Positions 33,203-37,894 of a stretch of DNA of 49,576 bases are shown here, in pieces (position 1 is the stretch's first letter; each line of letters starts with the position of its first letter). The translations under genes and the position numbers were made by a program. This stretch comes from Escherichia phage HK639. The DNA lies in the sequence record NC_016158.1. One strand, written 5' to 3'. The notes under the pieces were generated by a model. It did not search any database, was not told where the DNA came from, and saw only the letters and a program-made list of their open reading frames with translations.

Positions 33203-33649
33203 CTTAATTAGTGAGGCTGCGTATTCGAGGAGATACAGTTTTGGGGCCAGCCAGATTTTTAGCCACGTCAGGTCAGATAAGATGACGAAGGCGATGACCG
33301 AATACAGGAACATAATGGTTCCAAAAAACACTGACGAAGCACTGATAGTGCCGTCTTTGTCCCAGACCAATGTTGGTCTATATTTTGGCTTGCCGCGTTC
33401 CCATGAATATCCCTCTTCGCCATAAACTCCGTCCTGCTCGCGCTTCATCATTACCCTGAAGAATTTAATCGCAACCGGGATAGTCGCCAGAATAACCAGC
33501 GTGAGCATCATGCTTTTGGTGAATTTCCATACCAGCAACTGATGCACAACCTCCGGGATCTGCGCTTGGCTAAATGACACCGCAGCATCGATGCCATTCG
33601 CCGCTTTCTGTAATAGATCAACGAGAATTTTGTTCGCTTGTTCGTTCAT
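33200..33649 (-). CDS. membrane protein (two predicted TM helices), possible exclusion-type protein
   Basis: 149 aa; hydrophobic stretches MMLTLVILATIPVAIKFF and VFFGTIMFLYSVIAFVIL. Confidence 0.5.
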   Translation of the reverse strand: MNEQANKILVDLLQKAANGIDAAVSFSQAQIPEVVHQLLVWKFTKSMMLTLVILATIPVAIKFFRVMMKREQDGVYGEEGYSWERGKPKYRPTLVWDKDGTISASSVFFGTIMFLYSVIAFVILSDLTWLKIWLAPKLYLLEYAASLIK

Positions 33650-33693
33650 AATTGCCCTCTGTCGTTACCCGCAGATGCGGGAGAAATGCTTTG

Positions 33694-33763
33694 TGGTGGA
33701 GTGCTCCGGATTCGAACCGAAGTTTTCATGGGTGATCAGTCCATGCAGGCCCAGCCACACCCC
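33694..33763 (-). other. tRNA-like element (T-arm, acceptor 3' strand, CCA) of non-canonical structure
   Basis: Minus strand reads GGGGTGT...TTCGG-TTCGAAT-CCGGA-GCACTCC-A-CCA; 5' GGGGTGT can pair with 3' GCACTCC via two G-U pairs; only 35 nt between, so no canonical D/anticodon arms. Confidence 0.3.
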
Positions 33764-33887
33764 ACTACAAAACATTCCAGTTATTGCCGGGGTATTTATC
33801 CGCGCCCGGCGCGCGCTTTCCCGCTATTCCCCAACAGCAAGAAATCGCTTACTCTTTAATCTCCCCAACAGTAGAAAGGATATATTC

Positions 33888-34109
33888 ATGCAAACCATGC
33901 GGACCGTGTGCCCTGACTGCGGAAGTGAGATGTTCAACCAGCCCGATGATTTTGACTTTGAGACAAATTTCACCGGCGTCAGTTGTGCTGACTGTGGTCG
34001 AGAAATCACTAAGGACGATGTTGTCAATCAGGCCACGGACACGGTCAAAAAACAGATCGACGACATGCTCAGGAATTCCCTGAAAGGAACTGGCTGGAAG
34101 TTCAAGTAA
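33888..34109 (+). CDS. zinc-ribbon protein (CxxC...CxxC), orientation uncertain
   Basis: 73 aa MQTMRTVCPDCGSEM...VSCADCGREI with RBS AAAGGA; antisense ORF 33849..34196 (113 aa, RBS GAGGGG) is an alternative reading. Confidence 0.35.
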   Translation: MQTMRTVCPDCGSEMFNQPDDFDFETNFTGVSCADCGREITKDDVVNQATDTVKKQIDDMLRNSLKGTGWKFK

Positions 34110-34486: not shown

Positions 34487-34723
34487 ATGAGTGCTATGCT
34501 CACAAAAACAGCAGGAGGGATGTGCATGGTTCTGGATGAAGAGCGTATAAGCATGAAAATTCAGGCGATGGGGCGGGCGGTGATGGAATTGTCACTGGCT
34601 GATTTACCCATGACCCAGCAAAACATCATCGACAAGCTGGAGCAGTACCGGAAGGAAACAGGAAACGTGATAGGGAAGGGCGTGAACAGGGATGCGGCTG
34701 AGATAGTGTGGAAAGGCTTATAG
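34487..34723 (+). CDS. hypothetical small protein (true start may be internal Met)
   Basis: 78 aa; preceded by very AT-rich promoter-like region; weak resemblance of C-terminal part to Hha/YmoA-like proteins, not verifiable. Confidence 0.4.
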   Translation: MSAMLTKTAGGMCMVLDEERISMKIQAMGRAVMELSLADLPMTQQNIIDKLEQYRKETGNVIGKGVNRDAAEIVWKGL

Positions 34724-34760: not shown

Positions 34761-34926
34761 AGGATGACAGCGTTTACCAGAGGGATCGGGTTGTTTACCA
34801 GCTGGCGGGGAATAGACGCCGTTAATGCCAGCATCCCATAATATTCAATTGGTTACGCTGACGTGGTGGTGGTGGTCGAATGGGGATCGGCAGACACAAA
34901 AAACCCGGCGCGGGGCCGGGGAGGGG

Positions 34927-35325
34927 TTAGTTCATTGGAAGAGAAATTCCAGAAACTCCCGCTTGTGCAAGTAGGGTATCAGCGAAGAATTTAAAATAAG
35001 TTTTCATGAACGACGAAAAATACCATGTATTTTCAATAAGAAACGTTTCATCTACAGTTTTATCTTTTGGATATGTATAGACCATCTTCATATCTATTTT
35101 TAAAGAAAACACTTTTGTAGATTTATCAGGACCATAGCTATCAGCAAAGGGACTGGCATGAACGATAATCACTGATAGATCAGGGTTGGAAAGTAGAGTC
35201 CCGCCAGCCTCAAAATTTAAATCGCCATACTCGAAAGTAACCTCTCCGCCATAAGAGTCTCCTAAGCGCGAAATTGCGCTATTAGTTACTGATGCTTCAA
35301 TGAGTTGCAATTCGCTTAATAGCAT
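34927..35325 (-). CDS. hypothetical protein, third gene of Gp49/HigB-like operon
   Basis: 132 aa; start overlaps stop of upstream HTH gene; AT-rich; no recognisable domain. Confidence 0.5.
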   Translation of the reverse strand: MLLSELQLIEASVTNSAISRLGDSYGGEVTFEYGDLNFEAGGTLLSNPDLSVIIVHASPFADSYGPDKSTKVFSLKIDMKMVYTYPKDKTVDETFLIENTWYFSSFMKTYFKFFADTLLAQAGVSGISLPMN

Positions 35326-35750
35326 TTCGTTTGATATTCCGCATTGCTTGTTTTAATAGTAATTTTAATGGTCTGGCCCGGGTTATCGCTAACATCGGCC
35401 GCTTTCCATGAGAGTCGTTTCATATCTGGAATGATGGCATGCGAGACGTCCACTCCTTCTCTTAATATGACAACTTTCGCCACGGCCCCTAAAGCATAGG
35501 CCATATCAGAAAGGGTTTTGAGAGTCATATTCCGAGTGCCGTCGAGCAGCTGGCTTACATGACCTTTAGATTTACCCAATTTTTTAGCTAGCTCGGACTG
35601 AGAAATGTTCGCGTCCTGCATTGCTAAAAGAAGGTCTTCAGTTGTGTTAAAGATCAAGCGCTCACACGCCATCTCTCGCTCACTAACCTCCGGGAAATCA
35701 AAATTATCATCACTAAACAGATTGTTAGCAATCATCATGGCCTCGCTCAA
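35316..35750 (-). CDS. HTH XRE-family protein (HigA-like antitoxin candidate)
   Basis: HTH segment ISQSELAKKLGKSKGHVSQLLDGTRNMTLKTLSDMAYALG; overlaps upstream toxin-like gene. Confidence 0.65.
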   Translation of the reverse strand: MSEAMMIANNLFSDDNFDFPEVSEREMACERLIFNTTEDLLLAMQDANISQSELAKKLGKSKGHVSQLLDGTRNMTLKTLSDMAYALGAVAKVVILREGVDVSHAIIPDMKRLSWKAADVSDNPGQTIKITIKTSNAEYQTKCY

Positions 35751-36018
35751 TTCTTTCCCAATTATTTTTCACCTTTTGGACATCTGAGTCATCAAGTCGG
35801 TCAAAATCTTTGTATATGTAATGACTAATAAAAATCGTCATATCATGTCTGTCAGACTCCCAGTAGTAACCTCTAATCGGAATCTTCTTTATAGCCCAGA
35901 AATTCTTAGCTGGCTTTCCGTTAAACGATGGCAAAATTCCTTCTTTGCGAACACTCAAGTCAGGCGTCCTTTTGCCAGAAGCCAAGCGCTCAAGTTGCAG
36001 GATGAGTGATATCTGCAT
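35725..36018 (-). CDS. Gp49/HigB-like toxin candidate (RelE/ParE superfamily)
   Basis: Track ORF 35725..36129 begins at non-ATG codon; ATG at 36018 with AGAGG RBS gives 97 aa; C-terminal IPIRGYYWESDRHDMTIFISHYIYKDF fits recalled Gp49/HigB pattern. Confidence 0.5.
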   Translation of the reverse strand: MQISLILQLERLASGKRTPDLSVRKEGILPSFNGKPAKNFWAIKKIPIRGYYWESDRHDMTIFISHYIYKDFDRLDDSDVQKVKNNWERIERGHDDC

Positions 36019-36145
36019 ACTTTTCTGCCTCTTTGCAGGAGTAACGCTTTTCAGCGATTCGCTCAGGGATTTCAATGCTCCCTTACAATGCACTATCCGA
36101 TAACACTCACCCTGTATGGAGCCTTTCAATTTATCACCATCTAAG

Positions 36146-36165
36146 AGTTAATATATATATTAACT
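36146..36165. promoter_or_regulatory. 20-bp perfect palindrome AGTTAATATATATATTAACT (candidate operator/promoter of toxin operon)
   Basis: Between cI stop and the HigB-like gene; self-complementary across full length. Confidence 0.5.
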
Positions 36166-36291
36166 TGAAGGATACAAGTTAGTTTGACTTAAAATGCTTA
36201 TTAATATGTATGACTCTTCACACCGAGATGTGCCCTTCGATATTGTCACCAGCTATGCGCCGACCAGAACACCTTGCAGAAGCCCCAGCTG

Positions 36292-36981
36292 TCAAAGCTT
36301 GTTGTAAGCAATGGACTCATGGATCAGCGCCTTACCCATGATGTACAGCTGGTCCTGATTTTCTTCTGTCACATACCAGTCTTTGTACGCCGGGTTATCG
36401 GAAAGTACAGCCAACTGCAGACCCTGCATTTGCAGGCGCTTAACGTGGAAGTGCTGCCCGAAGACAAACGCATACACCCCGTCAACTTTGAAGTTCCTCA
36501 CTGAAACGTCAAAGAAGAGGCGATCGCCAGACTGTATTGTCGGGCACATGCTGTCGCCGTCTACGGTCATCACCTTCACATCATTTTGAGTGCGGTTCCC
36601 GAAAAGAGATCTGGCATGCTCAGTTGTGAACTCAATAGCATGCAGGACCTCAACAAATTCAGAAATCATAAAAGACCCCGGACCAGCGCTTACTTTCAGG
36701 TCTAAAACATCAACCCGAAAGACATCAATTGTTTCCGAGACCGGTTGGGCCGCCGATGGCACATTACCATCAATCCGCATTTCCCCCACTCCAGAACTAA
36801 GCCATTCCGGCCTTACACCCAGAGCATGAGCTAGCTCGACCATCTTACGGCTGCCGCTCGTTTTACCTGATGTCATCTTTTGAATTGCAGGCTGGGATAT
36901 ACCGACTTTATCAGCCAACTGTCCTTGAGATATGTCAGCGGCCGACATAGCCGCGTTCAGTCGTTCTGCAAATGTTTTCAT
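36292..36981 (-). CDS. cI: CI-type prophage repressor (HTH plus S24 peptidase domain)
   Basis: N-terminal HTH QGQLADKVGISQPAIQKMTSGK; C-terminal S24 domain with GDSM motif (VDGDSMCPTI) and conserved Lys region; divergent from cro. Confidence 0.85.
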   Translation of the reverse strand: MKTFAERLNAAMSAADISQGQLADKVGISQPAIQKMTSGKTSGSRKMVELAHALGVRPEWLSSGVGEMRIDGNVPSAAQPVSETIDVFRVDVLDLKVSAGPGSFMISEFVEVLHAIEFTTEHARSLFGNRTQNDVKVMTVDGDSMCPTIQSGDRLFFDVSVRNFKVDGVYAFVFGQHFHVKRLQMQGLQLAVLSDNPAYKDWYVTEENQDQLYIMGKALIHESIAYNKL

Positions 36982-36992
36982 CTTATCAATAT

Positions 36993-37056
36993 ATAACCGA
37001 GGTTATGTAGAGTAAAATAACAAAGGTTATGGACAATGCCCATAACTTGGGTTATC
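36993..37056. promoter_or_regulatory. oR-like operator region with ATAACC/GGTTAT half-sites
   Basis: ATAACC-GA-GGTTAT (36993..37006), lone GGTTAT (37025..37030), ATAAC-TTGG-GTTAT (37043..37055) in the cI-cro intergenic region. Confidence 0.55.
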
Positions 37057-37091
37057 TTTTCATTAATCCAGTAATCGGATAGGTAAAATCC

Positions 37092-37319
37092 ATGAACAAA
37101 GTTATTCAACGAGCTTTAGAAATCGTTGGCAGCCAGAAGCGACTCGCAGATATTTGCGGCGTTAGCCAGCCAGCGGTTCACAAGTGGCTTAACGGTGGTT
37201 CCGTATCTCCGGAAAAAGTAACAGCCATCGTAAACGCTACTGGTGGCGAGATTAAGGCACACGAAATTCGACCTGATCTTCCCGACCTGTTTCCACACCC
37301 AGAGAACCATGCCGCTTAA
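37092..37319 (+). CDS. cro: Cro-like HTH regulator
   Basis: 75 aa; HTH RLADICGVSQPAVHKWLNG; divergent from cI across operator region. Confidence 0.7.
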   Translation: MNKVIQRALEIVGSQKRLADICGVSQPAVHKWLNGGSVSPEKVTAIVNATGGEIKAHEIRPDLPDLFPHPENHAA

Positions 37320-37348
37320 CGGCGGCCCTAACCACGAAAGGGAAAGCA

Positions 37349-37894
37349 ATGCATTCACTTGCGTATCAACAAGGTAACAAATTTTCGCCAACGGCGATGA
37401 TTTACCAGAATCGCCGGGAGCCTGATTCCGCGGCGTTAAACATCGATGGGATTCGCGCAGCGGTTCGCGCCTGGGCAGCTGATTGCCGCAGCCGTGAATT
37501 TGTCGCCGCTCTGATTGTTGAAGAGTGGCGGGCAATCGGCGGCACCGGACTTGATATCCCGACTGACTCACACCGCCAGATGCAGAAGGTGTTCCGCTGG
37601 ATCGACGGGGACACCGAATATGCGGCCAACAACATTCGCCAGCTGGCACCGGCAATCATGGCCGTGCTGCCGCTGGAGTACCGCAACCGCCTGGCACCGC
37701 AGAACGACACGATGTCGCTAATCGCCTCTGCAATGAAAGAGTGTGCCGAGGCTAAACAGGCCGTGCTGCTGGACGCTCCAGAGCATCAGAAGCTGAAAGA
37801 GGTAAGCGAGGGTATAGCGTCGCTGTTCCGCCTCATGCCGGAGCAGGTAGGGCCGTTGATGACGATGGTGACGTCGATGCTGGGGGTTATGTGA
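37349..37894 (+). CDS. CII-like / YdaT-like regulatory protein
   Basis: 181 aa directly after cro; position and size consistent with CII-like family. Confidence 0.5.
   Translation: MHSLAYQQGNKFSPTAMIYQNRREPDSAALNIDGIRAAVRAWAADCRSREFVAALIVEEWRAIGGTGLDIPTDSHRQMQKVFRWIDGDTEYAANNIRQLAPAIMAVLPLEYRNRLAPQNDTMSLIASAMKECAEAKQAVLLDAPEHQKLKEVSEGIASLFRLMPEQVGPLMTMVTSMLGVM

Follow-up and report, generated by a model that had tools for sequence, protein, structure and literature searches.

The DNA considered here, a stretch of 49,576 nucleotides from Escherichia phage HK639 (NC_016158.1; the whole stretch is referred to below as the window), carries three minus-strand open reading frames (ORFs) directly 3' of cI and in the same orientation (Table 1). 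The trio occupies the position of rexAB in lambda, as established by its neighbours: cI itself, the divergent cro (YdaS/P22_Cro type) and YdaT-like genes upstream of cI, and KilR and Gam-like genes farther along the left arm. Structure prediction and comparison with related loci make it probable that the three genes are a toxin-antitoxin-chaperone (TAC) module of the HigBAC type, which a lambdoid prophage carries as a moron in its 'rex' slot and which serves in phage defence. An earlier note on this DNA had proposed a tripartite module that goes beyond a simple HigBA pair in the rex position, and that proposal is upheld, as three genes follow cI and the third has a predicted SecB fold.

Genes and regulatory sites of the operon

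The genes are arranged in the order toxin, antitoxin, chaperone, and the trio is flanked by one promoter/operator and one terminator, with a spacer of 162 bp between cI and gene 1. Genes 1 and 2 overlap by 14 nt, counted from the most likely start of gene 2, and genes 2 and 3 overlap by 10 nt; these junctions indicate that the three genes are translationally coupled. The operon is modestly AT-rich, with a GC content of 37-47% compared to 48-52% in the flanks.

Table 1. Coordinates of the operon and its predicted control elements in the window
Feature	Position	Strand	Details
cI	36292-36981	-	HTH_3 + Peptidase_S24; phrog_4 at 1e-59
Putative sigma-70 promoter	36150..36177	-	-35 TTGTAT 36177-36172; 16-nt spacer; -10 TATATT 36155-36150; located by eye
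Operator (predicted)	36146..36165	-	20-bp perfect palindrome AGTTAATATATATATTAACT; core GTTAAT-ATATAT-ATTAAC; overlaps the -10
Gene 1, putative toxin, 134 aa	35725..36129	-	TTG start; GGTGA Shine-Dalgarno 4 nt upstream
Gene 2, HigA-type XRE helix-turn-helix (HTH) antitoxin and autorepressor (predicted), 140 aa	35316..35738	-	most likely start ATG 35738; ORF 35316-35750
C-terminal tail of gene 2, about 44 residues	35319..35450	-	DVSHAIIPDMKRLSWKAADVSDNPGQTIKITIKTSNAEYQTKCY; beyond the HTH; candidate chaperone-addiction (ChAD) element
Gene 3, SecB-like chaperone (predicted), 132 aa	34927..35325	-	presumed ChAD binder and phage sensor
Intrinsic terminator of the operon	34894..34920	-	CCCGGCCCCGCGCCGGG then TTTTTTGTGT; 6 G-C pairs and T-run; begins 7 nt past the gene 3 stop

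It is the predicted nature of gene 3 that points to a TAC system. The earlier note had described a protein of 132 residues that overlaps the stop of the HTH gene and has no recognisable domain, which agrees with the absence of any match in Pfam, NCBIfam or PADLOC; the only match in the sequence libraries is phrog_19522, a family of unknown function, and no more than 28 representatives of the gene 3 family were found at E <= 1e-3 among 1.84 billion cluster representatives. The AlphaFold2 model, built with 15 homologues, has a pLDDT of 87.2 and a pTM of 0.79 and consists of a beta-sheet followed by a long helix. When compared with the PDB using Foldseek, its top 19 matches were all either SecB (Escherichia coli, Haemophilus influenzae) or Rv1957, the SecB-like chaperone of the Mycobacterium tuberculosis (Mtb) TAC system, with E values of 1.5e-5 to 2e-4, a probability of 1.00 and a TM score of about 0.6. 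On the strength of this model, gene 3 is predicted to be a SecB-like chaperone, and the trio to be a TAC system.

Gene 1 had been read in the earlier note as a protein of 97 residues starting at ATG 36018, but its true start is the TTG listed in Table 1. This is supported by homologue clusters (approximately 67), all of about 134 residues, in which the N-terminal 37 residues are conserved (..VHCxGA..), with H14 and A18 invariant and C15 nearly so; by alignment of the TTG with the GTG start of a relative (L007); and by the source record, which annotates the three genes as 134, 140 and 132 aa. The C-terminal peptide that the note had quoted is present. No match to gene 1 was found in Pfam, NCBIfam, PADLOC or PHROGs, nor to any PDB sequence with either the single protein or a profile. 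Its AlphaFold2 model (32 homologues; pLDDT 88.8, pTM 0.85) contains the elements of the RelE/ParE fold, namely an N-terminal strand, two helices, a beta-sheet and a long C-terminal helix; its three top structural matches are Gp49-like HigB toxins with a long C-terminal helix (PMC9098466), and the toxin of the Mtb TAC is among the two best. Gene 1 is therefore predicted from its model to have a Gp49-like HigB fold of the RelE/ParE superfamily, and it is presumed, by analogy, to be a ribosome-dependent mRNA endonuclease. The Gp49/HigB-like assignment of the earlier note thus stands at the level of the predicted fold and fails at the level of sequence, where PF05973 and all other sequence models go unmatched. 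The toxin gene also lies upstream of an XRE-HTH antitoxin gene, as it does in Gp49-like HigB systems.

Gene 1 homologues keep 21 invariant positions at around 30% identity, including R86, K107, H14, H103 and Y104. The basic catalytic and ribosome-contact residues of Mtb HigB1 (K58, R61, R68, R77, K95 and K99) were compared with these by eye, without a residue-level structural alignment, and at that level K81/K82-I-P-I-R86-G of gene 1 resembles K58-P-I-R61-G of HigB1, and Y106-K107 resembles Y94-K95.

The assignment of gene 2 as an XRE-type HTH protein is borne out by a match to HTH_3 at 3.3e-7 (30.7 bits against a cut-off of 23), and phrog_1373 is matched at 1.4e-12; the score against the curated HigA model TIGR02607 was 19.4 bits, under its cut-off of 47.7. 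A gene 2 homologue directly follows the gene 1 homologue in every locus looked at. All gene 2 homologues extend past the HTH domain with a tail of 40-60 residues, and in the tail two aromatic positions are conserved, a W/Y right after the HTH and a Y/F near the C-terminus; members of the clade to which the window belongs retain them as LSW, YSS, YIT, YET or YVS, then EY or DF. The PADLOC candidate PDC-M64 was considered for the locus and rejected, as only the HTH gene matches it (PDC-M64B/C, 2e-9) and genes 1 and 3 gave nothing relevant. Weak sequence matches to AIPR_N (E 0.13) and Csx19 (E 0.028) were ignored as below significance, and phmmer and hmmsearch comparisons with the PDB, using single proteins and profiles A2, A3, A5 and A6, returned chance matches (OmpC, EngB, ubiquitin, tau).

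The perfect palindrome in the presumptive promoter was found at exactly the position that the earlier note had given. Its 18-bp core has no second copy in the window and did not turn up in any of 100 shuffles. Among related loci, GTTAAYATATATRTTAAC is matched exactly in 23 of 38, and with up to four mismatches in 34 of the 35 that were scored, usually 12-20 nt before gene 1 starts; the sole locus missed (L035) has an exact copy that was masked by an over-extended ORF start. The DNA around the operator is unrelated among these loci. The palindrome is therefore not a chance feature, and on sequence comparison the operator appears to be conserved across the whole family with the consensus GTTAAY-ATATAT-RTTAAC. 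The window promoter scores 8/12, under the threshold of the scan tool, and the same TTGnnn-16-TATATT layout recurs in three relatives (L001, L007 and L009), while a fourth (L045) shows it in perfect form, TTGACA-16-TATATT. Autorepression by a type II antitoxin classically works through an operator that overlaps the -10, and by analogy the HTH antitoxin encoded by gene 2 is presumed to bind the palindrome, its predicted operator reading GTTAATATATATATTAAC. A scan for a terminator-like site between cI and gene 1 found none, so the operon could also be transcribed by read-through from cI, as rexAB is.

Distribution and divergence of the trio

The trio is found, in the same order and with overlapping junctions, in metagenomic lambdoid contigs, where it is bordered on one side by a CI-type repressor, not always of the same kind, and on the other by the early-left genes. 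In mEp237, a cultured coliphage, it corresponds to gp36/gp35/gp34, of which the gene 1 homologue is 73% identical to that of the window and the gene 3 homologue only 32%. Many Rac-like and lambdoid prophage contigs carry it (in the contig collection, 405 blocks are indexed for the mEp237-type toxin), and the enterobacterial module has been found repeatedly in the slot downstream of cI. A scan of one genome per species gave 29 further loci in diverse Gammaproteobacteria (among them Alcanivorax, Halieaceae, Pseudoalteromonas, Photorhabdus and Methylobacter). A gene 1 homologue is directly followed by a gene 2 homologue in 28 of the 29, the other (L036) having a partial gene 1 that adjoins its gene 2 homologue, and 26 of these loci have a third ORF next, 152-194 aa in length. 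Neither the distant gene 3 relatives (P0092-P0107) nor the long third genes tested match Pfam SecB. A profile made from 21 of the third ORFs matches exactly one PDB sequence, the SecB-like TAC chaperone Rv1957, at E 2.6e-4.

Both forms of the third gene occur in the same slot. In a Citrobacter lambdoid prophage (L045/L046), the position downstream of cI is occupied by the long version, with a chaperone of 164 aa that matches the long third-ORF profile at 4e-53 and an antitoxin that ends in ...FWRKVA; Pfam recognises neither the toxin nor the chaperone of this sister locus. Two sub-types can thus be distinguished, a long, Rv1957-like one of about 164 aa (L045/L046) and a short one of 132-137 aa (the window and L039-L044), and their presence in one slot suggests that cassettes are exchanged within it.

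In the antitoxins of the distant loci (L010-L035, and 3919-4371 of L045), one Trp directly follows the HTH and another stands about eight residues before the end; the C-terminus of nearly all of them is -AA or -VA, with a conserved Trp ahead of it. In Mtb HigA1, the chaperone-addiction element involves W108, W137 and a Val-Ala ClpXP degron (PMC5105189), and CmdA likewise has an Ala-Ala end that acts as a ClpXP degron (bioRxiv 10.1101/2024.02.24.581848). The W...W-AA/-VA tails of the distant loci appear to match this combined ChAD and degron signature, of which the degron-like -AA/-VA part seems to have been lost in the enterobacterial short-chaperone clade of the window.

The rate of divergence differs among the parts of the module. 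In pairwise comparisons among five close relatives, identity was 67-75% for the toxin and 58-77% for the HTH core of the antitoxin, compared to 26-41% for the antitoxin tail and 32-53% for the chaperone. The tail and the chaperone therefore appear to be the fast-evolving, co-varying parts, which fits co-evolving pairs of ChAD and chaperone as well as a sensor under diversifying pressure. Every close relative has the third gene alongside the pair, and in more distant ones a SecB-like gene follows in the equivalent position. The earlier note had named two findings that would together speak against its proposal; the first, a gene 1 without any matching sequence model, was indeed obtained, but the second, a third gene not conserved with the pair, was not.

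Proposed mechanism, precedents and alternatives

The TAC reading draws together the SecB fold predicted for gene 3, the HigB/Gp49-like fold predicted for gene 1 and the HTH with aromatic tail of gene 2, along with the overlapping junctions, the conservation of the trio, the profile match of the third ORFs to Rv1957 and the family-wide operator. The two-Trp, -AA/-VA antitoxins of the distant loci and the precedent of the HigBAC system of E. coli NT1F31 at the same locus point the same way. The following mechanism is proposed by analogy with Mtb HigBA1-SecB(TA), NT1F31 HigBAC and CmdTAC. In a lysogen, the operon would be expressed at a low level and autorepressed by the antitoxin, alone or together with the toxin, acting on the GTTAAT-N6-ATTAAC operator. 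The SecB-like chaperone would hold the aggregation- or degradation-prone tail of the antitoxin, which could then neutralise the toxin. On superinfection, an abundant structural protein of the incoming phage would mimic the tail and titrate the chaperone, so that the antitoxin would fail, and the freed HigB-fold toxin would cleave ribosome-bound mRNA, stop translation and abort the infection.

In terms of position, the closest precedent is NT1F31 HigBAC (Mets et al. 2024, Cell Host Microbe; bioRxiv 10.1101/2024.02.24.581848). Like rexAB in lambda, it is located immediately downstream of cI, and by detecting the tail protein gpV it confers protection against lambda-vir and Bas25 (bioRxiv 10.1101/2024.02.24.581848). 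It shares with the window module both the slot in a lambdoid prophage and the three-part logic. Furthermore, its HigA fails independently of ClpXP (bioRxiv 10.1101/2024.02.24.581848), and the window antitoxin also lacks an -AA end. The comparison, which covers the toxin and the antitoxin, otherwise brings out differences: NT1F31 HigB has 95 aa and matches PF09907 HigB_toxin at 1e-30, whereas gene 1 has no PF09907 match and no similarity to it, and NT1F31 HigA has 218 aa with a 96-residue ChAD and four aromatic motifs, compared to 140 aa and a tail of about 44 residues for gene 2. Direct orthology to NT1F31 HigBAC was rejected on the PF09907 mismatch and a best toxin BLASTP match of E 0.10 over 10 residues.

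The architecture is shared with the Mtb TAC, which consists of HigB1 (Rv1955), HigA1 (Rv1956) and the chaperone Rv1957, but sequence similarity to it is not detectable for the toxin or the chaperone of the window. At 132 aa, the window chaperone is also shorter than the deposited Rv1957 chain (5mtw), which has 184 aa; moreover, the window antitoxin lacks the -VA degron, the catalytic residues match only partially and at motif level, and the setting is an enterobacterial prophage rather than a mycobacterial chromosome. CmdTAC (Vassallo et al. 2024, Nature, PMC11618068; Mets et al. 2024) is, like the window module, a prophage-borne TAC with a small SecB-like chaperone, the 128-aa CmdC, and its anti-phage abortive infection is set off by a phage structural protein (PMC11618068). 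It differs in that its toxin is an mRNA ADP-ribosyltransferase whereas gene 1 has a predicted RelE fold, in that CmdC is recognised by Pfam SecB and gene 3 is not, and in that CmdA ends in -AA, a ClpXP degron, which the window antitoxin does not. Lambda RexAB resembles the module in its position downstream of cI, in its strand, in expression from the prophage as predicted here and in a presumed role in excluding superinfecting phage; however, no Rex family was found in Pfam scans of the three proteins at E <= 1, the two are without homology and the mechanism proposed here would be entirely different.

Several observations weigh against the identification as a TAC defence module. PF05973 and every other Pfam toxin family are unmatched at E <= 1 in 31 of 31 members of the gene 1 family, whereas Mtb HigB1, used as a control, matches Gp49 PF05973 at 1e-18; hhalign found nothing between the gene 1 family and HigB1. 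By eye, E66, R68, Q98 and K99 of HigB1 have no obvious counterpart in a gene 1 motif. Gene 3 has no match to Pfam SecB PF02556 or in NCBIfam at E <= 1, while CmdC as a control is recognised by PF02556 at 4e-6, and neither the single sequence nor profiles A2 and A6 picked out a SecB among PDB chains. Comparisons by hhalign of the gene 3 family with CmdC, and of profile A2 with the Rv1957-like clade, were non-significant (E 0.04-0.14); the enlarged profile A6 gave a weak match to the Rv1957-like clade A4, with E 0.0093 over 65 in-register columns, and another comparison of the short clade with the Rv1957-like clade gave E 0.085. The short-clade chaperones are equated with the long clade through positional equivalence and the fold match, the profile-profile link being weak. 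The window antitoxin and those of its clade have no -AA/-VA degron. Finally, the toxicity, chaperone dependence, operator binding, lysogen expression and phage defence of the window module are inferred only, by analogy.

The alternative that survives best is a genuine TAC whose role is prophage addiction or stabilisation, or stress-responsive growth arrest, with a chaperone that does not sense phage proteins. This has the same architecture in its favour, TACs were first described as stress-responsive modules (PMC3581621, PMC5105189), and many members of the family lie in chromosomal contigs of marine Gammaproteobacteria. We regard it as unlikely, since the enterobacterial module recurs in the slot downstream of cI, called a variable defence locus by Mets et al., both of the E. 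coli TACs tested so far defend against phage (PMC11618068; Mets et al.) and the fast divergence of chaperone and tail relative to the toxin suits an arms race better.

An ordinary two-gene HigBA pair next to an unrelated moron, with gene 3 coding for a different kind of small beta-sheet protein (a superinfection-exclusion factor, for instance) whose likeness to SecB is confined to the predicted model, is very improbable. The lack of sequence similarity to SecB, the tiny size of the gene 3 family and a fold call that rests on a model from only 15 sequences are what such an arrangement would have to recommend it. Set against these are the confidence of that model and a list of top structural matches made up exclusively of SecB and SecB-like proteins, as well as the behaviour of the gene itself, which overlaps the gene 2 stop, always accompanies the pair even at 32% identity and co-varies with the gene 2 tail, and whose positional equivalent in the sister loci matches Rv1957 by sequence. 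A non-toxic regulatory cassette, in which gene 2 would be an accessory prophage or host repressor acting at GTTAAT-N6-ATTAAC and gene 1 its catalytically dead RelE-fold partner, is scarcely credible: although Mtb HigB2 and HigB3 are non-toxic Gp49-like proteins (PMC9098466), several HigB1 catalytic residues lack a clear counterpart in gene 1 and nothing else in the locus is conserved as strongly as the operator, the invariant positions of gene 1 argue for a constrained active surface and the single occurrence of the operator in the window gives no sign of a wider phage regulon.

It has only recently been shown that TAC systems act as sensors against phages, their SecB-like chaperone recognising structural proteins of the phage. 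Read as a TAC module, the HK639 locus most likely represents another lineage in the same cI-downstream slot of lambdoid prophages, of a kind already described there and here in divergent form; it would be a sequence-divergent member of the TAC systems and reveals no new principle. The toxin and chaperone of this lineage are sequence orphans that are recognisable by fold only and are missed by Pfam, NCBIfam and PADLOC; the lineage is present both in prophages and in genome contigs of diverse Gammaproteobacteria. The assignment provides an annotation for phrog_19522 and for gp34-36 of mEp237, the consensus operator can be used as a handle for finding further members of the family, and the chaperone and tail variants form a natural series for studying how trigger specificity evolves. 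More speculatively, the short (132-137 aa) SecB-like proteins could be fast-evolving phage sensors with triggers unlike those of HigC and CmdC, each paired with its own degron-less ChAD tail, and the lineage could be an unannotated branch of TAC immunity across the Gammaproteobacteria; we advance this tentatively and think it rather less likely than otherwise.

The cargo slot and the surrounding immunity region

The window as a whole is a lambdoid prophage of mosaic make-up, some of its segments resembling phi80, others HK225 or Enterobacter phages. One contig (LWMD01000076.1, assembly GCA_001642525.1) is identical to it across the compared stretch. When the operon was compared by megablast with phages and complete E. 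coli genomes, matches were found in the flanks only, and similarity to other phages ends approximately 15-50 bp past cI and picks up again at the terminator. The sole stretches of the operon region that match other records at the DNA level are a 38-bp segment just past the cI stop (36240-36277), which matches at 94.7% in phage mEpX1, and the terminator together with the DNA beyond it (34850-34919), which matches at 95.7% in E. coli M37H. These two stretches look like the recombination boundaries of a cargo slot, and the cassette of about 1.3 kb between them appears to behave as a moron, given that phage-shared sequence stops after cI and resumes at the terminator.

On the far side of cI, the cI-cro intergenic region (36988-37058) contains a 21-bp near-perfect inverted repeat, GTTATGGGCATTGTCCATAAC, at 37026-37046, situated between divergent promoter-like sites on the minus strand (37016-36988) and the plus strand (37030-37058). 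The repeat and the sites are probably the OR operators and PRM/PR of the immunity region. The plus-strand genes that follow (37092-37894) are a YdaS/P22_Cro-type gene in the cro position (PF15943, 9e-17) and a YdaT-like gene in the cII position (PF06254, 2e-27). From these assignments, a Rac-like immunity region appears to have been joined with a LexA-type (S24) cI and with phi80-like replication and recombination segments.

Just past the operon terminator, a small plus-strand gene (34487-34723) is convergent with the TAC operon. Most relatives have such a gene too, for example at 6556-6711 of L001, 2770-2895 of L007, 4778-4987 of L039 and 4906-5154 of L045; these genes encode 51-83 aa, and the L039 copy is a DUF2767 protein. 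Farther on, a plus-strand ORF of 172 aa (33591-34109) has a weak match to a TFIIB-type zinc ribbon (E 0.002) and overlaps minus-strand ORFs, so its coding strand is uncertain; in phi80 it probably corresponds to the 'zf-TFIIB domain-containing protein'.

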